Of a stretch of DNA of 54,100 nt, positions 4,307 through 48,969 are shown piece after piece. This stretch comes from an uncultured bacterium (GTDB lineage Bacteria > Muiribacteriota > UBA9980), in contig CAYQWL010000002.1 of NCBI GenBank assembly GCA_964421195.1, positions 16,801 through 70,900 of the forward strand. Reading direction: 5' to 3'. Both the position numbers and the translations under genes were made by a program. Numbering within the stretch: position 1 is the first letter of the stretch; every line of letters begins with the position of its first letter. The notes beneath the pieces were generated by a model that worked only from the letters and a program-made list of their open reading frames with translations, did not search any database and was not told the origin of the DNA.

Positions 4307-4414
4307 ACGCAGCGCTCATTTTATTATTAGAGCCCGTCACTCCTCAATTAATCACCGAAAATTAACAACAATGGCAATATAAAGATAAAAGCATTTTACA
4401 ATATTATCATTTAA

Positions 4415-4444: not shown

Positions 4445-4725
4445 TTAATTATATTTTAACTATATTTTATTACAGCTTTGATTATAATTAATTTAAAAAT
4501 AAACTTTACAATTTTAACATTTTCGTTTATAATTAATTCATTAAATTAAAAATTTAATATAAGTTCCAGCCAATTTAAAGTAACAATAAACGATTAAATT
4601 AACCGGATTACATTAAAAAATAAGCTTTATTAAGCTTCATCAAGTTAAATAATCAAGTCAGGTAAATAATTAAAACAAAAATACTCATTAATTTAATCAT
4701 TATTTCAAATGGAGGTATTATCTCG

Positions 4726-5538: not shown

Positions 5539-5585
5539 TAAAACCACATTTTCATAAAGAAAATCAATATAAACAATAAAATCAG

Positions 5586-5620
5586 CCGCGCATTCCGTGT
5601 TAGAATGCGCGGTTATTTAT
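5586..5620 (+). terminator. Intrinsic terminator-like hairpin after the 4726 gene
   Basis: 10-bp perfect stem CCGCGCATTC / GAATGCGCGG, 7-nt loop, followed by TTATTTAT. Confidence 0.7.
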
Positions 5621-5648
5621 AAATAAAATAAGTAATAAATAAAAAACT

Positions 5649-6589: not shown

Positions 6590-9500
6590 ATGAAAATAAG
6601 CGTTAACGACAAAAAAATGATAGCCGCAAAAGCCGCTTTTATAGAAGAACGCATATCCGGTTCCGTGATAGCGGCCGATTCAAACAATCACATAGAAAAC
6701 GTTTTGAACCGTGAAAATAACAAAAATAATATGCATTCAAAACTCATACGGCGATGGGCCGAATTAACTTCGGACGTTTTCGATGATAAAGGATTTGAAC
6801 GCCGCCTTAAATTAACATCAAAAAGCCTCGAAGCAATAAACGCCCTTACCGGCCCGGTCTTATGGAACGATGAAAAACCTTTACCAGAATGGATTTCAAC
6901 ATTAGAAGAATTTTTCAAAATTTTGCCCGCGTCTTATGATGAAATTATATCAGCGCTTCCTTCTAAATTAATGCCAGACGATTATTACGCTCCCTTTCAA
7001 CATGTCTGGGCGCCGTGGCTTTTAATATGTCGCCGGAAATTAAAACACTTCGCCGGCCGGGCTTTTAACCTTTTAAGCGTCAATGCTGAAATTTCATGGC
7101 TGCGGTATATATTAAATTCATTAAACACGGAATTCGCGCTCTGCCTCAATTCAGCCTTCGAACTTCTTAAATCTAATAATTTTATTTTTTTCAGCATGCC
7201 TCCGGCAGAATCATTTCCCGAAGGTTCTAAAACCCATTATAATAATTTTTCGAGGGTAATGCTCGAAGGCGGCTGGCTTGATTTTTTTAAAAAATACTCC
7301 GTAGCGGCCCGGCTTATATCCAATTTATGCGAATGCCAGGCGCTATATTTATCAGACGTTCTTAAAAATTACGAAAAAGACGCGGATAAAATCGAAAAAA
7401 CTTTCAACCAGAAAAGGAAGGCCGGCCGGATATCCGATTTAGAAGCCGGTCTTTCCGACTTTCACAACGGCGGAAAAAACGTCATTAAATTAAAATTTAA
7501 AAACGGACTCGCCGTTTATTACAAACCGCGCACCGGAAAAATCGACACTCTATGGGACGGAATTTTAAACTGGCTCGCGTCAAAAATAAAAAATATTAAA
7601 TTTAAAACGCCGGTTCGGCTGAATCGTCAAACGCATACCTGGGTTGAAAACATACAGGCAAACGATTTAATAAAAAAAGAAGAAACCGCGATTTTTTATT
7701 ATAAAGCCGGCGCCATATTAGCTTTAATATATGTTCTTGGCGGCACCGACTTTCATCAGGAAAATCTCATCGCCTGCGGCAGCGAACCCGTTTTAATAGA
7801 TCTTGAAACGCTATTAAGCCCGTCAGTCAAACCTTTTAATTACACAAACATGGACGATGAAGATAAAAAAAATTATCACGGCCTTGAAAGCGATTCCGTT
7901 TTAAGAACATGTATGCTGCCTCTCTGGACGGCTGTTTCAAAAAACATTTCAAGAGATTACGGCGCGCTCACGCCCGACGATGACTCTTTTTATTCGCGCA
8001 GAAAATGGCTGGATATAAACACCGATAAAATGAGACGCGGCTATATAGACCGAAAAAATACTTTTTCGCCCAACATCCCCCGGCTCAACGGAAAATATAT
8101 CGACACATTTAAATATAAAGAAAACATTATAAAAGGATTTAAAAACGCTTATAAAATAATTATGAATAACGGCGAAGAATTTTTAAACGAAACCGGACGG
8201 TTCGAAAAATTTAAAAACGCGCGCATACGTTATTTAACCAGACAATCGCAGGTATATGCCGATATGATCGACCGGCTGAGATCGCCGGCGTTAATGCGCG
8301 ACGGCGCGGCTTTTTCTATAGAATCCGAAGGTCTGGCAAAACCGTTTTTAAACTTCGCTTCCACTGAACGCATCGAAGCGCTCTGGAAATTATTCGAAGC
8401 CGAAAGAGGCGAAATTCTTTCTTTAAATATTCCATTATTCGAATTTACTTTAGACGGGCTTTCAATTTATGGGCCGTCTGGAAAAATACTGTCCGATTAT
8501 TTTTTGAAAACAGCTGTAGAACAGATTAAACGACGCACCATGAAATTGAGCGCAAAAGATCTCGAATTTCAATCAAATTTAATCGACGCTTCGTTTTTAT
8601 GCCGTTATCCAGATAAAATCAATAAAAATACTCCGGCTAAAAAGAAAAATAACAGATCCGCGATCGATCTTCCGTTGATTTCCGATAAAGAATATATTAA
8701 AACGGCTCGGTCCGCGGCCTATCAAATTGCTGAAAAAGCGGTTTATATCAAAGGAAAACCGCAATGGCTCACGCTTAAAACCGACCCGGAAAGCCGGAAA
8801 AATTTTATCGGCCCCATAGATTTAACTTTATATGAAGGCGCTTCAGGCATCGGCCTTTTTCTTTGCGCATACGAAAAACTGACGGGCGATCGAACCTATC
8901 GCACGCTCGCTATAGACTGCTTTTCAGAAATCGAAGAATTATTAAATGACCAATCAGCCGCAGTTGCGGCCGTAAAATCATCATGCGGTTACTGCGGAGG
9001 AATGCCCGGCATTTTCTGGGCGCTTTATAAATCGGGAAATTATATTCAGGACGAGCGGTTAATAGCAATGGCAAAAAAAGGCGAAAATTTATTAAACGCA
9101 AAAAACGTTAAAGATAGCGATGCGACGGATATAATCGGCGGCGCGGCAGGCGGCGCGCTTGCATTTTCAGCTTTATACGAAGCCCGCGGAAATGAACGGC
9201 TTATAGAGCTCGTTAAAATCCATGCTAAAAATTTAATTAACAAACGCTTTAAATACGATAAATGGAATTTATGGCCGTCAGACTACGCGTCAAAGCCTCT
9301 TACCGGATTCGCCCACGGCGCGGCAGGCTACGCTCTATCTTTAGCTAAAGCTTATGAACTGACCCGTATCGAAATTTTTAAAGAAGCCGCGCTCGAAGCC
9401 ATCGATTACGAAACTTCTAATTATATGCCCGAATATAATAACTGGCCGGATTTCAGACATAACCGGGCCTTAAAAACCGGAGAAACGGCTTTTATGGCCG

Positions 9501-9904
9501 GATGGTGTTCAGGAGCGCCTGGAATAGGGCTCGCGCGCATTAAAATGCCAAAATTTTTTCATGACCGAAAGATAAAAACCGATATCGAAAATGCTTTATC
9601 TTTTACTATAAATTTCAAGCATTTTTACAATTCACGCGATCACCTATGCTGCGGCGGCGCAGGCCGTATCGATTTTTTAATAGAAGCTTCCATAGCGCTT
9701 AATAGGCTCAATTTAATGGAAGACGCCAGAAAACAATTTTCATTTATAGTAAATAGAGCGGCTCTTAACGGCGGTTATACCCTGCCCGTCGAAGAATCAA
9801 AATCAATTTTTATGCCTGGACTTTTTACCGGCCTGTCGGGAATAGGATTAACCGCACTGAGACTTATCGATCCAAAAATAATTTCAAGCGCGTTAACCCC
9901 CTGA
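6590..9904 (+). CDS. lanM: Class II lanthipeptide synthetase LanM (dehydratase + LanC-like cyclase), CCG type
   Basis: Dehydratase motifs SDFHNGG, YYKPR, TDFHQENLIA, IDLETL, RYLTRQSQVY. Cyclase motifs LYEGASGI, GFAHGAAG, GWCSGAPG, HLCCGGAG, PGLFTGLSGIG. 1104 aa. Confidence 0.95.
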   Translation: MKISVNDKKMIAAKAAFIEERISGSVIAADSNNHIENVLNRENNKNNMHSKLIRRWAELTSDVFDDKGFERRLKLTSKSLEAINALTGPVLWNDEKPLPEWISTLEEFFKILPASYDEIISALPSKLMPDDYYAPFQHVWAPWLLICRRKLKHFAGRAFNLLSVNAEISWLRYILNSLNTEFALCLNSAFELLKSNNFIFFSMPPAESFPEGSKTHYNNFSRVMLEGGWLDFFKKYSVAARLISNLCECQALYLSDVLKNYEKDADKIEKTFNQKRKAGRISDLEAGLSDFHNGGKNVIKLKFKNGLAVYYKPRTGKIDTLWDGILNWLASKIKNIKFKTPVRLNRQTHTWVENIQANDLIKKEETAIFYYKAGAILALIYVLGGTDFHQENLIACGSEPVLIDLETLLSPSVKPFNYTNMDDEDKKNYHGLESDSVLRTCMLPLWTAVSKNISRDYGALTPDDDSFYSRRKWLDINTDKMRRGYIDRKNTFSPNIPRLNGKYIDTFKYKENIIKGFKNAYKIIMNNGEEFLNETGRFEKFKNARIRYLTRQSQVYADMIDRLRSPALMRDGAAFSIESEGLAKPFLNFASTERIEALWKLFEAERGEILSLNIPLFEFTLDGLSIYGPSGKILSDYFLKTAVEQIKRRTMKLSAKDLEFQSNLIDASFLCRYPDKINKNTPAKKKNNRSAIDLPLISDKEYIKTARSAAYQIAEKAVYIKGKPQWLTLKTDPESRKNFIGPIDLTLYEGASGIGLFLCAYEKLTGDRTYRTLAIDCFSEIEELLNDQSAAVAAVKSSCGYCGGMPGIFWALYKSGNYIQDERLIAMAKKGENLLNAKNVKDSDATDIIGGAAGGALAFSALYEARGNERLIELVKIHAKNLINKRFKYDKWNLWPSDYASKPLTGFAHGAAGYALSLAKAYELTRIEIFKEAALEAIDYETSNYMPEYNNWPDFRHNRALKTGETAFMAGWCSGAPGIGLARIKMPKFFHDRKIKTDIENALSFTINFKHFYNSRDHLCCGGAGRIDFLIEASIALNRLNLMEDARKQFSFIVNRAALNGGYTLPVEESKSIFMPGLFTGLSGIGLTALRLIDPKIISSALTP

Positions 9905-22315: not shown

Positions 22316-23428
22316 TTACACTATGGTATTTTCATCTTCGGTATCACATTCAAATAAATGCAGCTTATCGGTAATAACGCGGACCTTTATCTTATCGCCT
22401 TCCTGCACTCCGCAGCCCGATTCGAATTTAGCCACGGCATTATCGTCGCCGATCTTAAAATGAACGCAGCGTTCACTGCCAAGCAATTCTACAAGCTCGG
22501 CATTGATCTCTATTAAATTATCCGCAGCTGAAGAATCTTTATAAAGTTCAAAACATTCCGGACGGACACCGAGCGTCATTTTTTTATCGTTATATTTAGA
22601 TAATTTAGAGCCTTTATCGTTATATTTAATTTTAAATTCTCCATTAAGGCCGCATATATCAAAATTTTGACCGCCAGCGTTTTTAATCGTGCATTTAATA
22701 AAATTCATGGCGGGCGAACCAATAAAACCGGCGACAAATTTATTGGCCGGATGATCATAAACTTTTTGCGGCTCATCGGCCTGCTGAACGCGGCCTTTAT
22801 TGAATATAGCTATGCGGTCGCCCATCGTCATAGCCTCGGTCTGATCATGAGTTACATATATCGTTGTAGAATCGAGACGTTTATGCAATTTTCGAATCTC
22901 GGCCCGCATCGATACGCGCAATTTAGCGTCAAGGTTCGAAAGCGGTTCGTCCATTAAAAACACCTTGGGATCACGCACTATAGCTCGTCCAAGGGCCACG
23001 CGCTGACGCTGGCCGCCGGAAAGCTGCTTGGGCTTTTTTTCGAGATACGAAGTCAAATCGAGTATTTTCGCGGCATTTTCAACGCGTTTTTTAATTTCAT
23101 CTTTAGCGAAATTCCTGAGAGTAAGGCCGAAAGCCATGTTATCGAATATATTCATGTGCGGATACAGCGCGTAATTTTGAAACACCATCGCTATGTCGCG
23201 GTCCTTCGGTTGAAGATCATTCACGAGAGTTTCGCCGATAAATATTTTTCCTTCAGTTATTTCCTCGAGTCCGGCGATCATTCTTAAAGTGGTGGTTTTA
23301 CCGCAGCCCGACGGGCCTACCATTACTAAAAACTCTTTGTCCTTAATATGCAGATCGGTGGGAAATATAGTATATTCGGCATTACCTTCATACTTTTTAG
23401 TCACCTGCTGCAATATAACTTGAGCCAT
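22316..23428 (-). CDS. ugpC: CUT1 sugar/glycerol-3-phosphate ABC ATPase (MalK/UgpC/MsmX family)
   Basis: Walker A GPSGCGKT, signature LSGGQ, Walker B FLMDEP, YVTHDQ, C-terminal TOBE-like region. Start set at ATG 23428 (AAGGGTG upstream); the track gives 23437. Confidence 0.93.
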   Translation of the reverse strand: MAQVILQQVTKKYEGNAEYTIFPTDLHIKDKEFLVMVGPSGCGKTTTLRMIAGLEEITEGKIFIGETLVNDLQPKDRDIAMVFQNYALYPHMNIFDNMAFGLTLRNFAKDEIKKRVENAAKILDLTSYLEKKPKQLSGGQRQRVALGRAIVRDPKVFLMDEPLSNLDAKLRVSMRAEIRKLHKRLDSTTIYVTHDQTEAMTMGDRIAIFNKGRVQQADEPQKVYDHPANKFVAGFIGSPAMNFIKCTIKNAGGQNFDICGLNGEFKIKYNDKGSKLSKYNDKKMTLGVRPECFELYKDSSAADNLIEINAELVELLGSERCVHFKIGDDNAVAKFESGCGVQEGDKIKVRVITDKLHLFECDTEDENTIV

Positions 23429-23487
23429 GCAATTCACCCTTTCGTCATGCTTTATTTATTAACGCGTACTTTTAAATTTTATGGTTG

Positions 23488-29343: not shown

Positions 29344-29372
29344 TTGACTATAAAAAATTAAACTGGTATAAT
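29344..29372 (+). promoter_or_regulatory. Sigma-70 promoter of the riboswitch-pruA operon
   Basis: TTGACT-N17-TATAAT with extended -10 TG (29364-29365). Confidence 0.75.
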
Positions 29373-29423
29373 ACATTAAAAAAAAGCGGATGCTTCCGGC
29401 TTCCGCTGCATATTTTCTTCGAC

Positions 29424-29530
29424 CCTTTCATTCTAAAGCATAAGCCATGAATAAAGGGCGATTTCGGAAAAATTTCCGTAATAAGGGTATGAATGGAAAC
29501 GCTCATGCCTCCCGTGTTTGGAAAGAAGAA
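29424..29530 (+). ncRNA. Moco (molybdenum/tungsten cofactor) riboswitch aptamer
   Basis: Contains the Moco-RNA 3' signature GCCTCCCGTGTTTGGAAAG (29507-29525) and a P4 stem GGGTATGA/TCATGCCT (29485-29492/29503-29510) enclosing GGAAAC. Two upstream hairpins; tupA lies downstream in the operon. Confidence 0.8.
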
Positions 29531-29643
29531 AAAGCGCGCGACCGTGTTTTTTCGACTTATGTTTTTATTCAAACTAAAAACGTTTTGTTTTGTTGCGCCT
29601 TCTTACTTTAAACACGAAAAAAATAAGAAGGGATGGTAATGTA

Positions 29644-31275
29644 ATGTTCGGATTGTTTGAAATACCAAAACCGGTCAATGAACCAATTCTCGATTATTCT
29701 AAAGGCGGAAGCGCCGTCGTGGAACTTAAAAGCAGAATCACCGAATTAAAATCAGAAACTATCGAAATACCGCTTATAATAAACGGTAAAGAAGTGCGCA
29801 CCGGAAACTTCGGCTACTGCGTATCGCCGCACGATCACGGCCGCACTCTCGCTAAATTTCACAAAGCCGGCGAAAAAGAAATAGAAGCCGCTATTTCAGC
29901 CGCTATGAACGCGAAAAAAATATGGGACACTTTTACTTATGCTGAAAGGGCCGCGATATTTATGAGAGCGGCCCATCTTCTCTCAACCTCATGGCGCGCG
30001 ACCATTAACGGCGCGACCATGCTCGGTCAGAGTAAAAATGTTTTCCAGGCCGAAATCGATGCCGCATGCGAATCTATAGATTTTTTTAATTTCAACGCTT
30101 ATAACATGGCGTGCATTTATAAAAATCAACTTGATTCGACTAAAGGCGTCTGGAATTATACGGAATACAGGCCGCTCGATGGTTTTGTATTCGCGGTAAC
30201 GCCGTTTAATTTTACGGCCATCGCGTCAAATCTAATTTCAGCCCCGGCGGTAATGGGAAATACGATTGTCTGGAAACCGGCCGTTACAGGCATTTATTCA
30301 TCTTATTTCATAATGAAACTCTTCCAGCAGGCTGGATTGCCGGACGGCGTCGTAAATATGATACCGGGTCCGGGAGCGCTCATCGGTCCCATGGTTATGA
30401 AAAATGAAAACATGGCCGGCATTCATTTTACCGGCAGTACCACGGTGTTTAACGATATGTATAAAACGGTCGGAACGAATATAGCCGGCTATAAATCTTA
30501 TCCGCGCTTAGTCGGCGAAACCGGCGGTAAAGATTTCATATTCGCCCATCCAAGCGCCGATAGAAAAGCCCTCTGTACCGCGCTTATCAGAGGCGCATTC
30601 GAATATCAGGGCCAGAAATGCTCCGCGGCTTCGAGAGCATATATCGCCGAATCGATATGGAAAGAATTAAAAGACATGCTCATATCTGAAGTTAAAACCA
30701 TAAAAATGGGCGATGTGGAAGATTTTTCAGTATTTATGGGCGCCGTCATCGATAAAAGCTCATTCGAAAATATTAAATCATATATCGAGTTCGCCAGAAA
30801 TTCTTCGGACGCCGAAATAATAGCCGGCGGCGGATGCGATATGAGCAAAGGATATTTCGTCGAACCTACCGTCATACTTACTACGAATCCAGAATTTAAA
30901 ACCATGGAAGAGGAAATATTCGGGCCTGTTTTAACCATATATGTTTATAAAGACAATGAATTCGAGAAAACTTTAAAGCTTTGCGACGAAACTTCACCTT
31001 ATGCCCTGACCGGCGCGATATTCGCCGAAGACCGCATCGCGGTCAAAAAAGCTTATGACGCTTTAAGATACAGCGCCGGCAATTTTTATATAAACGACAA
31101 ATGCAGCGGAGCGGTAGTAGGGCAGCAGCCATTCGGCGGAGCGAGAAAATCAGGTACAAATGATAAAGCCGGATCATGGCTTAATTTAGTAAGATGGACA
31201 TCGGCGCGCACCGTAAAAGAAACTTTCTGCCCGCCGCAAAATTATACTTACGATTATATGAACACATGGAGGTAA
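29644..31275 (+). CDS. pruA: Delta-1-pyrroline-5-carboxylate dehydrogenase (L-glutamate gamma-semialdehyde dehydrogenase)
   Basis: NEPILDY, QAEIDAACE, PFNFTAI, HFTGST, ETGGKDF (catalytic E), FEYQGQKCSA (catalytic C), EEIFGP, SGTNDKAG. Start set at ATG 29644; the track gives 29590. Confidence 0.95.
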   Translation: MFGLFEIPKPVNEPILDYSKGGSAVVELKSRITELKSETIEIPLIINGKEVRTGNFGYCVSPHDHGRTLAKFHKAGEKEIEAAISAAMNAKKIWDTFTYAERAAIFMRAAHLLSTSWRATINGATMLGQSKNVFQAEIDAACESIDFFNFNAYNMACIYKNQLDSTKGVWNYTEYRPLDGFVFAVTPFNFTAIASNLISAPAVMGNTIVWKPAVTGIYSSYFIMKLFQQAGLPDGVVNMIPGPGALIGPMVMKNENMAGIHFTGSTTVFNDMYKTVGTNIAGYKSYPRLVGETGGKDFIFAHPSADRKALCTALIRGAFEYQGQKCSAASRAYIAESIWKELKDMLISEVKTIKMGDVEDFSVFMGAVIDKSSFENIKSYIEFARNSSDAEIIAGGGCDMSKGYFVEPTVILTTNPEFKTMEEEIFGPVLTIYVYKDNEFEKTLKLCDETSPYALTGAIFAEDRIAVKKAYDALRYSAGNFYINDKCSGAVVGQQPFGGARKSGTNDKAGSWLNLVRWTSARTVKETFCPPQNYTYDYMNTWR

Positions 31276-31281
31276 TATAAA

Positions 31282-32394
31282 ATGCTCAATAAGTTGATTT
31301 TAATTTCAGGCGCGCTTTTACTGACAATTTCATTATATCTGATTTCCGTTACAAACACGGACAACGGTCATAGCGGAATAATAAAAATAAAAGGCGCGGT
31401 TAAAAACGAAATCAACTTAAGCTTTAATGACCTCGAAGGCATTAAATCCGCTGCAAGGCGGATAAAAATATACGACGATAAAAACGAATATCTCGGTAAT
31501 TACGAATTAGACGGCGTAGCGCTCGGCGAATTACTTTCGCTTGCGGGCGTCGCTAAAAAAACGGACGACGGCTTCGACCGCGAACTCGACATGTACGTCG
31601 TTGTGCGCGGCCGAAGCGGCCGTTCCGCGCTTTTTTCTTACGGCGAAATATTTCTCGACGCAAATTTTAATTCCGTTATTTTAACGAAAAACGCCCGTTT
31701 CATTCTTCCGGACAAACACGAAGATTTAAAGCCGTTTAATTTCAACGACCGCCTCTGGCACAAAGCGCCCGGCGCCCATAACATCGATCTTAAAAATTGC
31801 GCCGCGTGCCATAACGCAAAAGATGAAAGAAAACTTTACTTTCCTCGCGGCTACTGCGTTTATCCCACCTCCGATTCGAGCTCCGAGCGCTTTATCGAAG
31901 ACGCATACGAAATCGAAATTTGCCAGATTGCGCCGCGTGCCATAAAAATGGAAAAGCATAAGGAAAATATGTGGAGCGAATCGATAATTATTAATATTTG
32001 CGGTAAAAACAGCATGGAAATATGGACCGGCTCATTATCCACTTTCTATAAAACCCGATTCATTGAAAATACCATAGGATTGGGAAAAGGATTTCATGGT
32101 AAAAGTGAATTCGAAGGTTATAACATGGCATGCGTTTTAAATCAATTTTGCCCTCCAGCGGATTACGCCATGTCTTATTACGTCATAACCGCAGACGACG
32201 GTTACAGAAGCCTTTTTTCGGCGGCCGAAATTTTTAATTCATCAAAAGGCGCTAATTTATTTCTGGTAGATATCGAAAACGGAGCGGCTCTTAAAAAAGG
32301 CAGCGGCCGTTTTAGAGCATTCATCCGGGAAGACTTTTTTATAGATCGCTGTGTACGGGCGGTAAAAGAAATTCATTATAACCATGCGCAATAA
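31282..32394 (+). CDS. Exported protein with two molybdopterin-oxidoreductase-like domains and one CxxCH motif
   Basis: N-terminal TM/signal; GVALGELLSLAGV and ALFSYGEI in the first half; ADDGYRSLFSAAEI and DRCVRAVKEI in the second; central CAACH. The domain call is by motif resemblance only. Confidence 0.55.
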   Translation: MLNKLILISGALLLTISLYLISVTNTDNGHSGIIKIKGAVKNEINLSFNDLEGIKSAARRIKIYDDKNEYLGNYELDGVALGELLSLAGVAKKTDDGFDRELDMYVVVRGRSGRSALFSYGEIFLDANFNSVILTKNARFILPDKHEDLKPFNFNDRLWHKAPGAHNIDLKNCAACHNAKDERKLYFPRGYCVYPTSDSSSERFIEDAYEIEICQIAPRAIKMEKHKENMWSESIIINICGKNSMEIWTGSLSTFYKTRFIENTIGLGKGFHGKSEFEGYNMACVLNQFCPPADYAMSYYVITADDGYRSLFSAAEIFNSSKGANLFLVDIENGAALKKGSGRFRAFIREDFFIDRCVRAVKEIHYNHAQ

Positions 32395-32423
32395 TACATA
32401 CAATAAAATAAGGAGATAATATA

Positions 32424-33272
32424 ATGAAAAAAAAGAACGCCATACTTTCAATACTATTTTTATCCATGTTAATCCTGTTTTTTTGCCCGAACCGCTTTAT
32501 CGCCGCGCAGGCCGCCGGCGGCGGACTGACTGATGAAACCATAATATTAGCCACGACATACAGCGTTTTCGATACCGGTCTGTTAGACGAACTATTAAAA
32601 GAATTTAAAAGCAAAACCGGCATTTCCGTAAAACCTATCGTCGCAGGATCCGGCGAATCATTAAAACTCGGCGAACGCGGAGAATGCGATATAATTCTCG
32701 CTCATTCTCCGGCGCTCGAAGAAAAATTCATGGAAGAAAAATACGGTAAAGACCGCAAATCATTCGCCCGGAACGAATTTTATATAATAGGCCCGGAATC
32801 CGATCCGGCGGGCGTTAAAAACGCAGCCGATGTTTTTGCGGCTTTTGCCAGACTTGACAGCGCCGGCGTATTTATTTCACGCGGCGATAATTCTGGAACG
32901 CATAATCGTGAAATGTCTATATGGAAGAAAACTGGCGTTTCGAAAAAAGCAGGCTCAAATTACATAATAACGGGGCAGGGAATGGCTGAAACACTTAAAA
33001 TAGCGGATGAAAAACAGGCGTACACGCTCTGTGATTCAGCCACGTTTACCTATATGAATGAAAAGCTGACATTAAAAAAAATATACTCCGATATTAAAAA
33101 TTTATCAAATATTTACAGCGTTATTACAATAAATCCCGAAAAAAACAAACACGCAAAATACGAGCCCGCTAAAAAGTTATACGATTACATACTTTCGGCC
33201 GAAACGCTAAAATTCATAGGTGAATTTGGAAAAGAAAAATTCAATAAACCGCTTTTTAATTTAATGGAGTAA
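32424..33272 (+). CDS. tupA: Tungstate ABC transporter substrate-binding protein TupA (variant TTYS)
   Basis: LATTYSVFDTGLL, GSGESLKLGERGECD, FISRGDNSGTH, GQGM, YTLCD, NIYSVI; signal peptide; AGGAG SD. Confidence 0.88.
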   Translation: MKKKNAILSILFLSMLILFFCPNRFIAAQAAGGGLTDETIILATTYSVFDTGLLDELLKEFKSKTGISVKPIVAGSGESLKLGERGECDIILAHSPALEEKFMEEKYGKDRKSFARNEFYIIGPESDPAGVKNAADVFAAFARLDSAGVFISRGDNSGTHNREMSIWKKTGVSKKAGSNYIITGQGMAETLKIADEKQAYTLCDSATFTYMNEKLTLKKIYSDIKNLSNIYSVITINPEKNKHAKYEPAKKLYDYILSAETLKFIGEFGKEKFNKPLFNLME

Positions 33273-33306
33273 TTAACTGACGGTTTTATTTATCTAATAA
33301 TAAGGC

Positions 33307-33346
33307 TAAAATAAAAAGACGGGTTATAACCCGTCTTTTTATTTTA
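33307..33346. terminator. Bidirectional terminator (perfect 40-bp palindrome)
   Basis: TAAAATAAAAAGACGGGTTA / TAACCCGTCTTTTTATTTTA between convergent tupA and the 33801 gene. Confidence 0.85.
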
Positions 33347-33360
33347 ATTATTCAATTGTT

Positions 33361-41602: not shown

Positions 41603-43606
41603 CTATCCGAGAAGCCCTGCGCTCAAATTAGATTTAACGGGTAAAGTTATCTTAAAAGTAGTGGATTCGCCATAAACACTATCGACGGTAATTTTACCTC
41701 GATGCATTTTTATTATCCCATAAACGACGGGCAATCCAAGTCCCGTTCCCTTGCCATAACCTTTAGTAGTAAAAAATGGAGTAAACAATTTCGGCATTTT
41801 ATCTTTAGGAATGCCGATACCGTTATCATTAAAAGATATTATGACTTCTTCATCATGTTTTACCACGTGCACATTAATAATTCCCGGAGAACGTTTAGCC
41901 TCGATCAAAGCGTCTTTCGAATTAGAAATCAAGTTAGTAAAAACCTGAAGCAGCGCCGTTTGATCGGCTTCGATAACAAGCGAATCAGGGCAATCGACTT
42001 TAATAGAAATATTAATGCCGATAGAAACATAATCATTTCTTATTTTAGTGCATAAGTCTTTTATAAAAGCGGAAAAATCAAATTCAATTATAGTAAGTTT
42101 ATTTTCTCTGGAAAAATTAAGCATTCCGGTTATAATTTCTTTAGTACGGTTAATTTCGCTAATAATAGTTTTAACGTCATCTTTCAGTTCGTCGTTTTCG
42201 ATCTGCTCGTTCAGCATGTGCGCATACAGCAGAACCGTGCCGAGAGGATTATTTATTTCATGCGCGACTCCGGCAGCCATCTGACCGAGCGAAACTAATT
42301 TTTCTTTCTGTATAAGCTCATTTTGCGTAGATTTAAGCATTTGATTCGACTGTTGTAACAAATTAAGATTTTCTTCAAGTTTTTCTATAACATAAGGCAG
42401 GCACATTTCTTTTTCGGCGAGGCCGGCTATTATAGCGCGCGCCTTGGCGCGGCACGAAGGATAACCGCATGCGCCGCAATTTAGTTCATCTTTAGGCTGG
42501 GTTTTTCCCATTTCTATAAGCACTTTTTTTATTTCCGCCGAATCGGCTTCTTTAATTTCCGATACTTCTTCCGATTCAAATACCACGCTTAAATCAATAT
42601 TTTTATATTTTTCAATTTCTATTTTCCAGCGTTGCTGATTACTTTGAGACATACGGCTTTTAATATATTCAGACATTTGAGATTTTTTTTCAAAATAATT
42701 AAGCTCGGAACATATTTTAGGACCGTCGATGCAGCCGAGGCAAAAGAGCATATCAATAAATTTACCGTCAAGCGAACCTTTTTTAATCGAATCGAGCACC
42801 ATTAAAACACGGTCTTTGCCCTCTGTAACTATAGTTTCGTTATCTACTATATCCTCAGTTTTTTCGGCGCATTTTAACAGCCCTCCGGTAACCGGGTAAA
42901 TAGCTCCAAGATTGGCGTGCGGCGGATCAAAATCGATTTTATTGAGCTTTTCTATATCAATTTTATTTTCAATAATCCATAACTTTAATTCTTCAAATGT
43001 AATAACGTAATCAATGTCACGGATATAATTGCTTCTTTCATCTATTTTCGCTATGCACGGCCCGATAAACGCGGTTCGGCGGCCGGGGTTTTTCAATCTG
43101 GCCACGCGCGCGGAAGCCACCATAGGGCTGACTATCGGCGCTAAATATTTGATCAATTCGGGCTCGTATTTTTGAACGTATTTAACTATGGCAGGGCATG
43201 GAGTTGCAATTACGGTTTTTCCTTTATTTTCGGAAAGATATTTTTTATAAGCCAGAGTTACGAGATCGGCGCCAAAACCCACTTCATAAACATTTTTAAA
43301 GCCAAGCGCCTTTAAAACGCTGACGAGTTTAACGCCCACGTCCATAAAACTTACGACAAAAGACGGCGCAACCAATGCGTCTATATCTTTAAACGCGATA
43401 TCATTTTTAAGTTCGTTAAAATATGAAAGCACCACTTTAGCGTTTTGCGAACAAACCGTAGTGCAATGGCCGCATGAAATACAACGGAAGCTGATAACGC
43501 TCGCCTTGCCGTCTTTAACTTTAATGGCATGCGCCGGGCAGCTTTTTATACATGCATAACATTTTTTACATTTCTCTCCGATAGTGGATACTACTGACAC
43601 GCTCAT
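41603..43606 (-). CDS. Sensory group C [FeFe]-hydrogenase-like domain fused to histidine kinase (HydS-HK)
   Basis: 2x[4Fe-4S] CKKCYACIKSC and CISCGHC; variant H-cluster motifs TPCP, GPCIAKIDE, MLFCLGCIDG; FeS domain NCGACGYPSC; AHEINNPL, NLISNS, DNGIGI, GTGLGL. Confidence 0.9.
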   Translation of the reverse strand: MSVSVVSTIGEKCKKCYACIKSCPAHAIKVKDGKASVISFRCISCGHCTTVCSQNAKVVLSYFNELKNDIAFKDIDALVAPSFVVSFMDVGVKLVSVLKALGFKNVYEVGFGADLVTLAYKKYLSENKGKTVIATPCPAIVKYVQKYEPELIKYLAPIVSPMVASARVARLKNPGRRTAFIGPCIAKIDERSNYIRDIDYVITFEELKLWIIENKIDIEKLNKIDFDPPHANLGAIYPVTGGLLKCAEKTEDIVDNETIVTEGKDRVLMVLDSIKKGSLDGKFIDMLFCLGCIDGPKICSELNYFEKKSQMSEYIKSRMSQSNQQRWKIEIEKYKNIDLSVVFESEEVSEIKEADSAEIKKVLIEMGKTQPKDELNCGACGYPSCRAKARAIIAGLAEKEMCLPYVIEKLEENLNLLQQSNQMLKSTQNELIQKEKLVSLGQMAAGVAHEINNPLGTVLLYAHMLNEQIENDELKDDVKTIISEINRTKEIITGMLNFSRENKLTIIEFDFSAFIKDLCTKIRNDYVSIGINISIKVDCPDSLVIEADQTALLQVFTNLISNSKDALIEAKRSPGIINVHVVKHDEEVIISFNDNGIGIPKDKMPKLFTPFFTTKGYGKGTGLGLPVVYGIIKMHRGKITVDSVYGESTTFKITLPVKSNLSAGLLG

Positions 43607-43699
43607 CCCGCCCCGTCATATAAAAAATGATCAGGCTCAAAGCGGGACGGCATATAACCGGCGCGCTTCGAGGCCTGATATATCAGGTGTTCGTTATTT

Positions 43700-44107
43700 T
43701 TAATGACCGTGAGAATTATTGACCGCGGTATTTAATATACCGTTGACCTTTTCAAGTAAAATACCGGGATTAATCGGTTTATCAAGAAACATATCCGCTT
43801 TGATCCATTGCCGTTCCTTGGCTTCGTTCAAATCGAACTGGATTTCAGATTCCTGATTAACCGAAGTAGCGAGTATAACCGGAACGTCGGGACGCGCTTT
43901 TTTAATTTTATAAGCGAGTATAAAACCGGCATCGTAAGTTTCCATAATTAAATCGAGTATTACGAGATCGGGGGTGAATTTTTCGAATTTTTCCCAGCCT
44001 TCCTCGCCGGTTTCAGCGGTTTCTATTGAATATCCATTAGATGATAATGTTTCCGTAATTATTTCCCTTACATCGGAATCGTCGTCAACTATCAATATTT
44101 TCTTCAT
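43700..44107 (-). CDS. Single-domain response regulator (REC)
   Basis: ILIVDDD, LVILDLIM, ILATS, LDKP. Confidence 0.93.
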   Translation of the reverse strand: MKKILIVDDDSDVREIITETLSSNGYSIETAETGEEGWEKFEKFTPDLVILDLIMETYDAGFILAYKIKKARPDVPVILATSVNQESEIQFDLNEAKERQWIKADMFLDKPINPGILLEKVNGILNTAVNNSHGH

Positions 44108-44109
44108 GA

Positions 44110-45831
44110 TTATTTATCCCCCTTATACCTTGTGTGTAATAGCTCGTGCGCGTCATGTTCGTTTATATGCTTTTCATAAAGTTCTTTAACGTCGGGATTT
44201 TCATGTGAACGGCGGATGACGGAATTTTCATCGACTTTATAAGTGGTTTTAGTTCGCGATTTCAAAAGATCGGCATCGGTGTTAAACGGCTGACCGGCGC
44301 CTCCAACGCAACCCGCGGGGCAGCTCATAATTTCGACGAAATGAAGATCGGATTTTCCGGCGGAAATATCTTCTAATATCTCTACGGCGTTTCCAAGCCC
44401 ATTCACGACGCCTACGTTAATCTTTGTTCCATCTATATCGACCGTGGCGCGTTTAATTCCGGCCATACCACGAACCGGCTTGCAATCGATATTTTCAAGT
44501 TCTTTTCCCGTAACCATATTATACGCGGTTCTGATAGCGGCTTCCATAACGCCGCCCGTCGCGCCGAATATTTTACCCGCGCCTGAGGCATGAGCGAAAG
44601 GCCTGTCAAAATCAGAACTCTGTATTTTTTCATATTGTATGCCGAATTCATCGAGCAGCGAAAACAGTTCACGCGTGGTTAAAACGGCATCCACATTGGC
44701 CATGCCTTCATTTTGAAGCTGAGGCCGAACTATTTCAGATTTTTTAGCGACGCAGGGCATTACCGATACCACAAAAAGATCTTTCGCTTTAACTTTCAAC
44801 AGTTTTTCACTGAGATGTTTAAGCAGCGCGCCCTTCATTATATGGGGCGATTTGCAGCTCGACAGATGTTTTGTATGCTTCGGATAAAACGTTTCAATAA
44901 AATTAATCCATGCGGGACAGCACGAAGTAAACATCGGAAGCGGCTTATGTTTTTTAGTCAGCCGTTCGACGAGTTCTTTAGCTTCTTCCATAATAGTTAT
45001 ATCCGCCGCCGTACAGGTGTCAAAAACAAAATCAACGCCTATGCCGCGCAACGCGCCGATTATTTTACCGACAGCCTCTTCGACCGGTATCGATTTTTTA
45101 AAATATTCTGGAAATGTTACATGACATGCGGGCGCGAATTGAAAAGCCACCTTTTTTCCAGGATTGATTATCGCATCGATAACCGTTTTTTTATGAGGAA
45201 TTTCACGTAAAGCGCCGACGGGGCAAGCCATAATACACTGTCCGCAGGAAACGCAATTACCTTCAGCGAGAGATTTATAACTTCCCGGCGCTACATGCGT
45301 GCTGAAGCCGCGATTAGCGAAATCAATAGCCGACACTCTTTGCTTTTCGGCGCATACGGTAACGCAGCGGCCGCAAAGTATGCATTTCGCCATATCGCGT
45401 TCAACGGCGGGCGACGCTTTATCGATAACCATTTTCTTTTTAGCTCCGCCCTTAAAGGCGACTTCGTCAACGCCGTATTGTTTTGAAAGATCCTGCAACA
45501 GGCAATTTCCGCTTTTTGAACATGTAAGGCAGTCCTGTGGATGGTTAGAAAGTAAAAGTTCGATTATTTTCTTACGCGACATTCTAACCTGCGGCGAATC
45601 GGTGCGCACCTGCATTCCAGCTTCGGCCGGATACGAACAGGAAGCTATAAGGCGGCCGGTTTTAACGTCTTCGACCACGCAGATCCGGCATGCGCCTGAA
45701 GGCTTATAGCCTTCCATATAACAGAGTGTTGGAATAAACAGGCCGGCTTTTTTAGCAACCTGATAGATAGTTTCGCCTTTAATAAACTCGACTTCTTTAT
45801 TATTTATTGTCATTTTCAATTTCGTCTTCAC
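44110..45831 (-). CDS. hydA: [FeFe]-hydrogenase catalytic subunit HydA (group A, multimeric/bifurcating type)
   Basis: [2Fe-2S] C..GACRIC, His-ligated HPQDCLTC, 2x[4Fe-4S], canonical L1 TSCCPAW, L2 MPCVAKKSE, L3 EIMSCPAGCVGG; small-subunit RRSHENP...LLHT. Confidence 0.97.
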   Translation of the reverse strand: MKTKLKMTINNKEVEFIKGETIYQVAKKAGLFIPTLCYMEGYKPSGACRICVVEDVKTGRLIASCSYPAEAGMQVRTDSPQVRMSRKKIIELLLSNHPQDCLTCSKSGNCLLQDLSKQYGVDEVAFKGGAKKKMVIDKASPAVERDMAKCILCGRCVTVCAEKQRVSAIDFANRGFSTHVAPGSYKSLAEGNCVSCGQCIMACPVGALREIPHKKTVIDAIINPGKKVAFQFAPACHVTFPEYFKKSIPVEEAVGKIIGALRGIGVDFVFDTCTAADITIMEEAKELVERLTKKHKPLPMFTSCCPAWINFIETFYPKHTKHLSSCKSPHIMKGALLKHLSEKLLKVKAKDLFVVSVMPCVAKKSEIVRPQLQNEGMANVDAVLTTRELFSLLDEFGIQYEKIQSSDFDRPFAHASGAGKIFGATGGVMEAAIRTAYNMVTGKELENIDCKPVRGMAGIKRATVDIDGTKINVGVVNGLGNAVEILEDISAGKSDLHFVEIMSCPAGCVGGAGQPFNTDADLLKSRTKTTYKVDENSVIRRSHENPDVKELYEKHINEHDAHELLHTRYKGDK

Positions 45832-45837
45832 GCTAAA

Positions 45838-47658
45838 TCACTCCTTCACGATAGCTGAGAATTTACATGTGCTCAGGCAGAGCAGACAGCCTGTGCATTT
45901 ATCGGCCGCGATAACATAAGGCGTGCCGGGCTTTCCGTAAATCGCGCCCTGCGGGCATTTACGAGCGCAAAGACTGCATCCTCTACATTTTTCGGTAACT
46001 ATAACGCATTTAACCATCGATGAGCAAACGTGAGTGGGGCATTTTTTTTCAAAAATATGAGCTTCATATTCGTCACGAAAATGTTTGAGCGTGGATAAAA
46101 CCGGGTTGCTCGCGGTCTGTCCGAGGCCGCAGAGCGAACTATTTTTAATAACTGAACATAGTTCTTCGAGTTCGAGAACGCCTTTAAATCTAAGAAGCTC
46201 ATCGGAAGATTTTTTCTGATTCGACACATTGAGCACTATTCTATCGAGTATTTCATAAAGCCTTTTCGTGCCTTCACGGCAGGGGATACATTTACCGCAG
46301 GATTCGTTCTGGATAAAATTCATGAAAAAACGAGCCACATCGACCATACAGGTGGTATCGTCCATTACGACCATACCGCCGGAGCCCATTATTGCGCCGT
46401 TTTCTTTAAGAGATTCATAAGTTATTTTAGTATCCATAAGTTTTTCCGGCATACATGCGCCGGAAGGGCCGCCGATCTGTACGGCTTTAAATTTACGGCC
46501 TTCAGGAACGCCGCCGGCTATATCGTTAATCAGGGTCCTCAATGTAATTCCCATCGGCACTTCTATAAGGCCGGAATATTTAACGCGGCCCGTTACGGCA
46601 AAAACTTTCGTGCCGAGCGATTTTCCTTCGCCGAACGCCGCGAATTTAGAGGAGCCTTCACGCAATATCCAGGGAACGTTAGCAAAAGTTTCGACGTTAT
46701 TAATAACGGTCGGCTTACCAAAAAGGCCTTTTTCGGCAGGATATGGCGGGCGCGGAGTCGGCATTCCACGTTTACCTTCTATAGAAGCGAGAAGCGCGGT
46801 TTCTTCACCGCATACAAAAGCTCCTGCGCCCTTTTTAACTTTAAGTTCAAAGCAAAACTTAGAATTAAGAATATTTTTACCGAGCACGCCTTTTTCTTTA
46901 CACTGCTTGATAGCGTTTTCGAGGCGTTCGATAGCGAGCGGATATTCGGCCCTCGCATAAATATATCCGAAAGAAGCGCCGATAGCGTAAGCGCCGATAA
47001 TTATACCTTCTATAACTCTGAACGGATCGCTTTCGAGCACGGCGCGATCCATAAACGCGCCGGGATCGCCTTCGTCGGCGTTCATAACTATATATTTTTT
47101 ATTACCAGGCTGTTTATACGCCAGGTCCCATTTAATGGAAGTCGGAAACCCGCCGCCGCCGCGGCCCCTTAATCCGGATTTTTTTATCTCGTCTATAACA
47201 TCCTCCGGTTTCATAGCTGAAAGCACTTTCTTTAAAGCCACGAATCCAAGAGCTTTTGAATAATCATCAAACGAATAAGGGTTTATTATACCGCAATTTT
47301 CAAGCGCCACTCTTTTTTGACGGGCAAAATAAGGCGTTTCATAAACGCATGGCATATTCGGAGTTTTTTTATAAGTGCCGAGAAGCCATTTATTGGAATA
47401 ATTTTTATTATCGATCATTTCGATTAAAAACTCGGTAACGTTTTGAGGAGTTATTTCGCAATAAGCCATACGCGGCATGGAAGAAAATTCGAAATCGACC
47501 ATAACCTCGCGCGAGCAATAACCGATACAACCGACCGGTATCATTTCAAAAGCCATTTTACGAACATCGAGAAAATCTTCGATTGTTTTTTTTATTTCGA
47601 GCGCTCCCTGCGCAAGACCGCAGGTACCCATCCCGATATATACCTTTAACTTATCCAT
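45838..47658 (-). CDS. hydB: NADH-binding flavin subunit HydB (NuoF-like)
   Basis: N-terminal thioredoxin-like FeS, SGLRGRGGGGFPT, NADEGDPGAFMDR, GAFVCGEET, ESCGKCIPCREG, C-terminal 2x[4Fe-4S]; GGAGG SD. Confidence 0.96.
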   Translation of the reverse strand: MDKLKVYIGMGTCGLAQGALEIKKTIEDFLDVRKMAFEMIPVGCIGYCSREVMVDFEFSSMPRMAYCEITPQNVTEFLIEMIDNKNYSNKWLLGTYKKTPNMPCVYETPYFARQKRVALENCGIINPYSFDDYSKALGFVALKKVLSAMKPEDVIDEIKKSGLRGRGGGGFPTSIKWDLAYKQPGNKKYIVMNADEGDPGAFMDRAVLESDPFRVIEGIIIGAYAIGASFGYIYARAEYPLAIERLENAIKQCKEKGVLGKNILNSKFCFELKVKKGAGAFVCGEETALLASIEGKRGMPTPRPPYPAEKGLFGKPTVINNVETFANVPWILREGSSKFAAFGEGKSLGTKVFAVTGRVKYSGLIEVPMGITLRTLINDIAGGVPEGRKFKAVQIGGPSGACMPEKLMDTKITYESLKENGAIMGSGGMVVMDDTTCMVDVARFFMNFIQNESCGKCIPCREGTKRLYEILDRIVLNVSNQKKSSDELLRFKGVLELEELCSVIKNSSLCGLGQTASNPVLSTLKHFRDEYEAHIFEKKCPTHVCSSMVKCVIVTEKCRGCSLCARKCPQGAIYGKPGTPYVIAADKCTGCLLCLSTCKFSAIVKE

Positions 47659-47808
47659 AAAATTTTTCCTCCAGGATTATATTTATGATATATTTTTATT
47701 TATTCATAACTTCATGCTTTATATTTTACATTATGTTTTATATCTTACATTTTATAAAAACAATAAAGCATTAGATGTTTTTCAATCATCCGAAATTCGG
47801 AATTTAAA

Positions 47809-48969
47809 TTAATGCGCCGCGGCCTGACTTTTATTAGAATCTTTTTCATTAAGATAATCGACTTTAAGCTTATCTACTATTGCAAGAGTCTTTGCGACGT
47901 CGAGATGCCCGTAAAATTTATCATTAATCATAATAACCGGCGCGATAGAGCACGCGCCAAGGCAGGCGACCTGCTGAAGTGAAAATATTTTATCGCGGGT
48001 AGTCTGACCGACCTCTATCTTTAAATGCTCTTTAAGCGCATTTAATATATTAAGAGAGCCTTTAACGTGACATGCGGTGCCGCGGCATACGGCTATTTGA
48101 AAATGCCCCGGCGGAGTGAGTTTAAATTGATTATAAAAAGTCGCCACTCCATATACTTTAGAATCGGCTATACCGAGATATTCCGAAATTTTGATTATAT
48201 CGTCTTTCGAGATATAACCTCTTATATCCTGAACATCCTGCAATATTGGAATTAAGTTATCCCTTGATTTAGCGTATTTATTAAACGCCTCATAAATTCG
48301 TTTTTCGATGTCACCGTTAACCATTTCAATTTTCCCTCCATTGTTTCTATAGTTGTTCAGATTAATTTGATATGACAGGAACATATAACTTGCGGCCAGA
48401 TTCTCGTTTTTAACGATCGCGTCGTCCGGCAGTTTTAAATGAACCGGCGCGAAATTCCAGAAATAACGAACACCAAGTTCATATAATTTAGCCGCTACTT
48501 TAGCCGCGCCATTCGCGGGCAATGTCAAAACGGCAAGCTTAACGCCAAGCGTACTGATTACTTCTGAAAGATTGTCAAGCGGTAATATTTTAAAAGTTTC
48601 AACCGTAGTGCCGATAACCTGTGGTGAATGATCGAATATCGCGACTATTTTCAAACCGTAATTAAAAAAATTCGAATAATTACTCACGGCCCTGCCAAGG
48701 TTGCCGGCCCCGATGACTATCGCTTTATTAACGGTAGTCGTACCAAGAACCATTTTAATCGCCGAAATAAATTCATTTATTTCATAGCCCTTATTAGGCT
48801 TTCCATTCAAATTAAGAAATGAAAGGTCTTTTTTTATATTATTCTGGTCTATAAAAAAATGTTTTGAAAGAATCGACGAGCTTATAAATTCATGGCCCTG
48901 CTCTTTTAAATGACACGCTAACTGAAGATACCTGGGCAATCTTTCAACGATTCTAAGACTGAAATCCAT
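47809..48969 (-). CDS. rex-hydC: In-frame fusion of redox-sensing repressor Rex (aa ~1-205) and HydC/NuoE-like [2Fe-2S] subunit (aa 216-386)
   Basis: Rex: ERLPRY, IKKDLS, GKPNKGY, GAGNLGRA, NFAP. HydC: LIPILQDVQ, VATFYNQF, VCRGTACHVKG, CLGACSIAPV. No stop codon between the two parts. Confidence 0.9.
   Translation of the reverse strand: MDFSLRIVERLPRYLQLACHLKEQGHEFISSSILSKHFFIDQNNIKKDLSFLNLNGKPNKGYEINEFISAIKMVLGTTTVNKAIVIGAGNLGRAVSNYSNFFNYGLKIVAIFDHSPQVIGTTVETFKILPLDNLSEVISTLGVKLAVLTLPANGAAKVAAKLYELGVRYFWNFAPVHLKLPDDAIVKNENLAASYMFLSYQINLNNYRNNGGKIEMVNGDIEKRIYEAFNKYAKSRDNLIPILQDVQDIRGYISKDDIIKISEYLGIADSKVYGVATFYNQFKLTPPGHFQIAVCRGTACHVKGSLNILNALKEHLKIEVGQTTRDKIFSLQQVACLGACSIAPVIMINDKFYGHLDVAKTLAIVDKLKVDYLNEKDSNKSQAAAH

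Follow-up and report, generated by a model that had tools for sequence, protein, structure and literature searches.

The window, a stretch of 54,100 nucleotides (nt) on contig CAYQWL010000002.1 of an uncultured bacterium (Muiribacteriota; UBA9980), contained an operon in which a riboswitch for the molybdenum or tungsten cofactor (Moco/Wco) preceded pruA, the gene for L-glutamate gamma-semialdehyde (pyrroline-5-carboxylate, P5C) dehydrogenase. From 5' to 3' on the + strand the locus contained a promoter-like site, an aptamer of Rfam family RF01055, pruA, a second open reading frame (ORF2), a tupA-like gene and a terminator. The initial annotation had described this same series, including gaps of 6 and 29 nt between the genes, and each element was recovered where it had been placed.

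The promoter-like site (29344–29372, + strand; TTGACT-17-TATAAT with an extended TG -10) was predicted by a consensus scan, matched the sigma-70 consensus at 11 of 12 positions, and was separated from the aptamer by 33 nt. From 29373 to 31919 the scan of the + strand found no sigma-70-like site, and pruA therefore has no predicted promoter that bypasses the riboswitch, a possibility that the initial annotation had raised against its own proposal. The pruA stop and the ORF2 start were separated by exactly 6 nt, with the GGAGG of ORF2 lying within the 3' end of pruA. Exactly 29 nt separated ORF2 from the tupA-like gene, which was preceded by AAGGAG. A bidirectional intrinsic terminator (33306–33347, both strands) with a 19-pair stem and A/T runs on its flanks closed the operon. 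The region from the promoter-like site (a prediction) through the terminator forms a single transcription unit. A composition profile across the window gave no signs of a foreign island at the operon.

Aptamer and expression platform

The aptamer (29405–29544, + strand) matched positions 1–135 of the 135 positions in the RF01055 model, without truncation. Its score of 76.7 bits (E = 6.9e-17) was well over the gathering score of 36, so that the assignment to this RNA class in the initial annotation held, and RF01055 was the sole match in an Rfam scan of the window. The same 76.7 bits made the window aptamer the top scorer of the whole set of aptamers, and its conserved positions were intact. 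A covariance model built in this analysis from ten of these aptamers (R1) gave the window aptamer 127 bits.

A P3 hairpin (AUUUCGGAAAAAUUUCCGUAAU; 29461–29482, + strand) was present in both the Rfam alignment and the P1-constrained fold. P3 was missing from the aptamers of two Acidobacteriota loci (L019 and L024) and of an unrelated contig (L095). The presence of P3 has been correlated with Moco and its absence with the tungsten cofactor (Regulski et al., 2008; PMC2408646), and by this published correlation the window aptamer would be of the Moco type and not the W type. The ligand was unstable even in the original study of the Moco riboswitch (PMC2408646). A stable hairpin (GCGGAUGCUUCCGGCUUCCGC; 29386–29407) was located at the extreme 5' end of the predicted transcript, overlapping the start of the aptamer match, and similar 5' hairpins appeared in the folds of L011 and L013.

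Six related leaders (L011, L012, L015, L016, L013, and L014) had a GC-rich terminator and U-run directly 3' of P1. The terminator loop and 5' arm of these leaders complemented the P1 3' strand, as in the classical OFF switch built from an antiterminator and a terminator. Three other leaders (L019, L024, and L095) had the Shine-Dalgarno sequence (SD) within the P1 3' strand, a layout likewise found at Escherichia coli moaA (PMC2408646). The L043 leader contained no terminator and had a three-part translational layout consisting of the P1 3' strand, an anti-ribosome-binding site (anti-RBS) and the RBS. Judging from these predicted pairings, we conclude that the logic of the family is that of an OFF switch.

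The opposite polarity was considered and rejected. A scan had called a terminator at 29528–29553 (+ strand), overlapping the P1 3' strand, and this would have made the element an ON switch. The helix in question is formed by GAAAAAGCGCG of the P1 3' strand and the U-rich CGUGUUUUUUC, and the six terminator-bearing relatives use the same pairing as an antiterminator. The SD hidden in P1 in three other relatives likewise speaks against an ON switch.

The output of the window riboswitch is most likely translational. Where the relatives have terminator arms CCUGUCCG...CGGGCAGG followed by a U-run, the window reads GCGACCG...CGACUUAUG. An RBS-sequestering hairpin (29596–29633, + strand) pairs the anti-RBS CCUUCUUA (29599–29606) with UAAGAAGG (29625–29632), and it was found in the minimum free energy structure of every window fold. 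Anti-RBS:RBS helices occurred in six of six pruA leaders, namely the window and five others. Within the window leader the anti-RBS:RBS pairing was calculated at -10.7 kcal/mol and the alternative pairing of the P1 3' strand with the anti-RBS at -11.5 kcal/mol. Inside the RBS region was a three-codon mini-ORF (ATG GTA ATG TAA; 29633–29644) whose stop overlapped the pruA start (TAATG); this mini-ORF was not conserved in L011.

The proposed mechanism begins with cofactor binding, upon which P1 would form. Formation of P1 would free the intrinsic terminator in the relatives. The window, where the terminator appears to have decayed, would instead rely on P1 to free the anti-RBS, which would then occlude the pruA SD. 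Translation of ORF2 would be coupled to that of pruA, given the 6-nt gap and the SD inside pruA. The OFF design and this coupling together imply that the operon would be expressed when Moco/Wco is scarce.

Products of the three genes

The pruA gene (29644–31275, + strand) encodes a protein of 543 amino acids (aa) that scored 773 bits against TIGR01236 (cutoff 613.6), the group-1 P5C dehydrogenase family, and 342 bits against Pfam Aldedh. The segments VGETGGKD (E292) and QKCSA (C326) were invariant in the PruA alignment, and from general knowledge of aldehyde dehydrogenases (ALDHs) we take E292 and C326 to be the catalytic Glu and Cys. The protein was 62–68% identical to thousands of annotated bacterial enzymes, and by sequence it is a typical group-1 P5C/glutamate-semialdehyde dehydrogenase. 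In Agrobacterium, the "PruA" of the PruA/PruR system is a pteridine reductase; it is unrelated to the P5C dehydrogenase (P5CDH) gene pruA and the shared name is coincidental. At a locus from an unrelated lineage (L129, 2635–7623), pruA followed four DAO/sarcosine-oxidase-like genes (Fer2_4, Pyr_redox, SO_alpha_A3, and DAO). This set resembles archaeal-type proline dehydrogenase complexes and would be the "normal" context for pruA in an anaerobe.

ORF2 (31282–32394, + strand) encodes an exported protein of 370 aa which, by fold comparison, has two tandem domains like those of sulfite oxidase (SUOX) and PruR, with a CxxCH motif at residues 173–177. It belongs to a rare, uncharacterised family: thirty-nine homologues were found among 5.8e9 clustered proteins and none of them was named. 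The homologues came from Wallbacteria, Riflebacteria, Acidobacteriota and similar metagenome-assembled genomes (MAGs). Against Pfam Oxidored_molyb (PF00174) ORF2 scored 18.9 bits, under the gathering score of 24, and over residues 34–95 only. A sequence-profile search against the PDB gave no match. The AlphaFold2 model (mean predicted local distance difference test score, pLDDT, 83.5) contained two beta-rich domains that resemble each other, with a linker of low confidence between them. The CxxCH was located in this linker, and 38 of the 39 homologues had it at the corresponding position. Foldseek matched ORF2 to the Moco domains of sulfite dehydrogenase (SorA), SoxC, sulfite oxidase and YedY (2c9x, 2blf, 2xts, 1sox, and 1xdy) with a probability of 1.0 and E values from 6e-9 to 1e-4, the matches to SorA, SoxC and sulfite oxidase being of the order of 1e-8 to 1e-5. 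The best single-domain structural match was PruR (7kom; TMt 0.77, root-mean-square deviation 2.8 Å), a periplasmic protein of SUOX fold, without the Mo cysteine, that binds small pterins (PMC11194511).

The CxxCH pair supplied the only conserved cysteines of the ORF2 family, and three homologues had just those two. None of the 39 N-termini carried a twin-arginine (Tat; RR-x-hydrophobic) motif, and all were plain hydrophobic and signal-like. The initial annotation had described ORF2 as a molybdopterin-domain-like protein. The fold bears this out as far as the sulfite-oxidase/PruR likeness goes, but a role as a molybdenum (Mo) or tungsten (W) enzyme was rejected on the sub-threshold Pfam score, the missing Mo-ligand cysteine and the Sec-type signal, and the CxxCH is a conserved feature of its own. 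We take ORF2 to be a Sec-exported protein with two SUOX/PruR-like modules and, probably, a bound haem c; CxxCH in an exported protein is the feature of c-type cytochromes, and the covalent haem is a prediction. Distant relatives of ORF2 (27–28% identity; proteins P0036–P0039; locus L131, 2839–6668) ended in a fused tetrapyrrole-methylase (CbiF-like) domain and were encoded directly after a TonB-dependent receptor, and Rfam detected no riboswitch at this fusion locus.

The third gene (32424–33272, + strand) encodes a TupA-like periplasmic oxyanion-binding protein (PBP_like_2, 113 bits), an orphan substrate-binding protein (SBP). It was homologous over its full length to the structure of Geobacter TupA (3lr1; E = 4e-54), so that the name tupA used in the initial annotation is apt at the level of homology. 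It does not extend to a full equivalog, as the score against the NCBIfam TupA equivalog (NF041772) was 185.7 bits, under the cutoff of 400, and neither tupB nor tupC was found in the window. The TTTS of TupA read TTYS, and the SGTH and GQGM segments were conserved. No BPD_transp_1 permease or partner ATPase adjoined the SBP gene; the sole ABC ATPase of the window was MalK-like (22316–23437).

Occurrence of the arrangement in other lineages

Related loci were searched for with an alignment of 11 sequences as the query. The order aptamer-pruA-ORF2-tupA was found in four other species-level lineages: L001/L011 ("bacterium UBP16_UBA6123"), L012, L015, and L007/L016. Identity of these lineages to the window was 80–85% for PruA and 48–58% for ORF2. 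Candidatus Wallbacteria loci (L004–L006, L013, and L014) had the aptamer directly before ORF2-tupA and contained no pruA, and the terminator following their aptamer aligned with the terminator of the pruA-bearing relatives. The aptamer-ORF2-tupA unit thus looks ancestral, with pruA having been inserted behind the riboswitch. This comparison with relatives had been proposed in the initial annotation, and the Wallbacteria loci support its suggestion that pruA was inserted into a W-uptake operon.

In a different Wallbacteria assembly, a stand-alone pruA of 67% identity was preceded by a Moco aptamer of its own (L043, 6706–6840; 70.2 bits), and the same was found at L044. The region 3' of the stand-alone pruA (L043, 9033–12696) contained an NTPase_1 gene and a Peripla_BP_2-FecCD-ABC transporter. 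It may be that pruA already belonged to the Moco regulon, as the Wallbacteria pruA with an aptamer of its own does, and then joined the aptamer-ORF2-tupA operon in the lineage of the window. The window aptamer was 70% identical to the Wallbacteria pruA aptamer and 72% identical to the Wallbacteria ORF2 aptamer, values too close for the ancestral one to be picked.

Eighty unselected metagenomic group-1 pruA loci (55–63% identical) were searched with covariance model R1. An aptamer was present at one of the 80, L095, and was confirmed by Rfam (70.7 bits). On this contig the P3-less aptamer was followed by a DcuR-like response regulator (RR) gene with its SD in the P1 3' strand, a generic ALDH gene (477 aa) and pruA (758.6 bits). 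Aptamer searches gave no match at pruA loci L045 and L127–L130 or at approximately 20 Acidobacteriota ORF2 loci. Altogether, Moco aptamers preceded pruA in three distinct architectures, and a Moco aptamer before pruA is a rare but recurrent arrangement.

TupA-like SBP genes adjoined ORF2-family genes in many loci. Other neighbours of the family included genes for MoeA, a MoeB/ThiF protein and a TupB-like permease. Eleven Acidobacteriota loci had, directly upstream of ORF2 and co-directional with it, a gene of the aldehyde oxidoreductase (AOR) family of tungsten aldehyde:ferredoxin oxidoreductases (best PDB match 1aor, E = 8e-53): L020–L023, L026–L028, L030–L032, and L039. The AOR gene was at approximately 3400–5660 in each of them, and the AOR proteins were 90–99% identical across Holophagales and Thermoanaerobaculia MAGs. 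The ORF2 homologues beside this AOR were approximately 33–38% identical to the window ORF2, which served as the reference for these values in place of comparison with each other. These loci, with their MoeA, MoeB/ThiF, TupB-like and TupA-like genes, are an unusually conserved tungsten-enzyme island.

P5CDH genes were found at most 6 kb from ORF2 in four further arrangements, in other phyla and from two subfamilies: group 1 in L009 and L036, and group 2 (NF002852, 686–693 bits) in L027 and L031. L022 also contained a P5CDH gene near ORF2, placed with group 2, for which the NCBIfam typing covered L027 and L031. Among the 80 unselected pruA loci, two had an AOR gene directly beside pruA. The order was pruA, AOR in L052 and aminotransferase, AOR, pruA, Liv-type transporter in L069. 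Besides the aptamer-bearing architectures, there were three contexts in which an AOR gene adjoined pruA or a P5CDH gene. By a rough estimate, a given single-copy gene falls within 6 kb of another by accident approximately 0.4% of the time; three or four independent arrangements would therefore be far above chance, as an inference from this rate and not a formal test.

Transport and regulatory genes were also observed around the ORF2 family. The P3-less aptamer of an Acidobacteria MAG (L019, 2321–7095), with the SD in P1, directly controlled a TonB-dependent receptor gene, which was followed by genes for a weakly CcsA-like membrane protein, a 377-aa protein and then an ORF2 homologue. Control of a TonB receptor by a Moco riboswitch would suggest that complexed W/Mo or a pterin is taken up. 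A Solibacteraceae locus (L036, 100–6464) contained, on one strand, ORF2, a DUF364/DUF4213 gene ("putative heavy-metal chelation"), a FecCD permease, an ABC ATPase, a TupA-like SBP and pruA, and the TupA-like SBP was thus paired with a permease of the siderophore/B12 type. Two loci from the Riflebacteria group, one labelled Ozemobacteraceae (L008, 607–3160, and L009, 11712–16063), contained a LysR regulator and an ALDH of 507–512 aa located 2–4 kb from an ORF2 homologue. The two ALDHs were 59.5% identical to each other, L009 also contained a group-1 pruA, and no aptamer was found at either locus.

Elsewhere, the window encoded a HydABC-type bifurcating [FeFe]-hydrogenase. Its genes adjoined a hydrogenase-like sensor histidine kinase gene (Fe_hyd_lg_C + FeS + HisKA + HATPase), the whole group occupying 41603–48969 on the - strand, and its NuoE-like subunit had a Rex-like N-terminus (Put_DNA-bind_N + CoA_binding) fused to it. 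At 6590–9904 this candidate-phylum anaerobe encoded LanM, a class II lanthipeptide synthetase of 1104 aa (DUF4135 + LANC_like).

Interpretation and comparison with known systems

The best supported conclusion is that pruA truly belongs to a regulon that is repressed by the cofactor and otherwise serves W/Mo scavenging. As to purpose, we give a probability of about 0.5 to a low-cofactor response in which PruA replaces tungsten-dependent aldehyde oxidation when Moco/Wco is short. Scavenging of W/Mo would fall to the TupA-like protein and to ORF2, the latter being periplasmic and combining CxxCH with two modules that resemble pterin domains. A shortage of Moco/Wco would leave tungsten AORs unable to be matured, and PruA, which is NAD-dependent and free of a metal cofactor, would oxidize glutamate-gamma-semialdehyde, an aldehyde derived from amino acids. 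Enzymes of the AOR/FOR (formaldehyde ferredoxin oxidoreductase) family, linked to ferredoxin, would take over this oxidation when cofactor is plentiful. For the tungsten enzyme FOR, the lowest Km is that of a C5 dialdehyde; the enzyme prefers C4–C6 dialdehydes or semialdehydes, and a semialdehyde has been proposed as its native substrate (PMC12096430). This substrate preference makes the sparing of tungsten enzymes by PruA chemically plausible. The host, to judge by the HydABC-type hydrogenase encoded in the window, is a hydrogen-producing fermentative anaerobe, and for such a fermenter ferredoxin-linked aldehyde oxidation would normally be preferable. The initial annotation had already proposed an ALDH that is turned on when Moco/Wco is scarce; the OFF-type relatives, the aptamer of the stand-alone pruA, L095 and the AOR adjacency all fit that proposal without proving it.

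Several observations weigh against a low-cofactor response. The terminator stem of all close relatives is degenerate in the window, with arms that are no longer complementary. The pairing of the P1 3' strand with the anti-RBS only modestly beats shuffled sequences, the fraction of shuffles equalling the observed value being 0.04 for the window and ranging from 0 to 0.275 across leaders. A search of the 54 kb window for AOR, proline dehydrogenase (PRODH), tupBC and Moco-synthesis genes found none. The P3 of the aptamer indicates Moco, whereas the SBP and the AOR context indicate tungsten. Seventy-nine of the 80 generic pruA loci had no aptamer in the covariance-model search. We know of no tungsten enzyme that oxidizes glutamate semialdehyde. 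Finally, the adjacency of AOR and pruA on one strand (L052 and L069) suggests co-expression in one pathway and not alternation.

This last point leads to a different reading, possible though on balance unlikely, in which PruA works with the ORF2/TupA/AOR module in the same pathway, be it amino-acid fermentation or the processing of imported material, and is regulated by cofactor because the whole module is. The P5CDH genes near ORF2 or tupA even without a riboswitch (L009, L036, L027, and L031) favor such a link, as do the co-directional AOR-pruA pairs, that of L069 being accompanied by an aminotransferase and a Liv-type transporter. However, under OFF logic PruA would rise just when the W/Mo enzyme cannot be matured, which is hard to square with a shared pathway, and PruA is a cytoplasmic enzyme of well-defined substrate with no known metal or pterin role.

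Decay of the switch in the window genome, with an eroded terminator, a largely constitutive operon and an aptamer that is a relic, is a real alternative but an improbable one. It would account for the non-complementary arms that replace the terminator stem of L011, L012, L015, L016, L013 and L014, and for the RBS hairpin, which was present in P1-enforced and P1-blocked folds of the window alike. A relic would not be expected to be the highest-scoring aptamer of the set with its conserved positions intact, and the anti-RBS design is present in the window as it is in the terminator-less L043 leader.

Neutral hitch-hiking, in which a chance rearrangement placed pruA behind the aptamer and the control has no adaptive meaning, is disfavored and quite improbable. 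The Wallbacteria loci that keep the ancestral unit without pruA and the scarcity of aptamers at generic pruA loci are what it would predict. Nevertheless, pruA does not appear to be a mere passenger, since independent aptamers precede both the stand-alone pruA (L043/L044) and the RR-ALDH-pruA series (L095), and the layout has been kept in at least five lineages although ORF2 has diverged to 48–58% identity. A changed ligand such as a non-metal pterin, making this a regulon for pterin signalling or salvage and not for Mo/W status, would suit the PruR-like fold of ORF2 (PMC11194511) and the control of one gene family by P3-plus and P3-less aptamers, but it is very improbable in view of the high Moco-model scores, the intact conserved core and the TupA-like SBPs, MoeA, MoeB/ThiF, TupB-like permease and AOR among the regulated or neighboring genes.

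Going further than the preferred reading of a low-cofactor response, a speculative and rather doubtful role can be proposed for the ORF2 family as the periplasmic part of a system that scavenges the cofactor, a pterin precursor, or chelated or thiolated W/Mo. The suggestion is made because the family has two pterin-domain modules, a number equal to that of the pterins in the W-bis-pyranopterin cofactor, together with a predicted haem c site, and because ORF2 recurs with TonB receptors, FecCD permeases, DUF364, TupA-like SBPs and an OFF riboswitch in several lineages. If true, such a system would be to Mo/W what BtuB-BtuFCD, with its B12 riboswitch, is to B12, and PruA and other ALDHs would be its cofactor-sparing arm. 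The company of the family (tupA, moeA, moeB, AOR, TonB receptors and Moco aptamers) marks it as a player in W/Mo acquisition by its hosts, uncultured anaerobes of digesters and sediments.

Of the components, the RNA class, P5CDH and TupA were known before. The new elements are a cofactor-free ALDH that is recurrently under a Moco aptamer, the sparing logic that this implies, and the ORF2 family. The accepted view confines Moco riboswitches to genes for Mo/W import and for building or using the cofactor, and within the literature searched no paper linked a Moco riboswitch to P5CDH or ALDHs. At least three lineages have independently put a Moco sensor before a cofactor-free, NAD-dependent ALDH, extending the regulon logic to cofactor sparing. 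Such sparing is established for B12, zinc and iron but, to our knowledge, not for Mo/W. For anaerobic amino-acid fermentation the prediction is that tungsten enzymes of the AOR/FOR type and P5C dehydrogenase are interchangeable for glutamate semialdehyde.

The individual parts of the operon resemble known systems to different degrees. PruA agrees with group-1 P5C dehydrogenases (TIGR01236; ALDH4A1/Thermus type) in its score above the trusted cutoff and its catalytic motifs, but the usual context of these enzymes is proline dehydrogenase, whereas here no PRODH is near and riboswitch control is found instead. ORF2 resembles PruR (7kom, 7rkb, and 7kos; PMC11194511) in its SUOX-like fold without a Mo-ligand cysteine, in its N-terminal secretion signal, and in an aromatic residue in DG[YF] that recalls the pterin-stacking Tyr by motif resemblance and not by alignment. 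PruR, however, is a small single domain with no detectable sequence similarity to ORF2, and its gene precedes a DcpA-type GGDEF-EAL gene. ORF2 has two tandem domains and a near-invariant CxxCH, is followed by tupA, and belongs to a family whose neighbors are tupA, moeA, AOR and TonB receptors. The homology of the SBP to TupA of the TupABC transporter (3lr1 and 5my5) extends over the whole protein. The SBP differs in its sub-cutoff equivalog score, in TTYS, in the absence of tupB and tupC from the 54 kb window, and in that the orthologous SBP of L036 accompanies a FecCD-type permease and a DUF364 protein.

The leader agrees with the Moco riboswitch (RF01055; E. coli moaABCDE leader; PMC2408646) in its full-length aptamer with P1–P5 and GAAA tetraloop and in its 5' position. 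Among its relatives the OFF-type platforms are of both kinds (terminator and SD-in-P1). The genes regulated in the original survey of Moco RNAs were confined to transport, biosynthesis and use of the cofactor (PMC2408646). The usual association of RF01055 with Mo/W genes is seen here in the oxyanion-uptake gene of the operon, the TupA-like SBP. The first gene, pruA, does not fit, as it encodes an NAD-dependent ALDH with no part in making, carrying or using the cofactor. A second departure from the published pattern is that a P3-bearing aptamer here accompanies a TupA-like gene.

Cobalamin riboswitches before B12-independent isozymes (metE and nrdDG/nrdEF) offer a parallel in logic, with a cofactor-sensing OFF switch controlling a cofactor-independent enzyme. 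Under B12 riboswitch logic a substitute that is costly or inferior is reserved for times of cofactor shortage, and it is often co-regulated with uptake genes. The two cases differ in RNA class and cofactor, and the counterpart proposed here, AOR/FOR, is an inferred partner and not a sequence-related isozyme.

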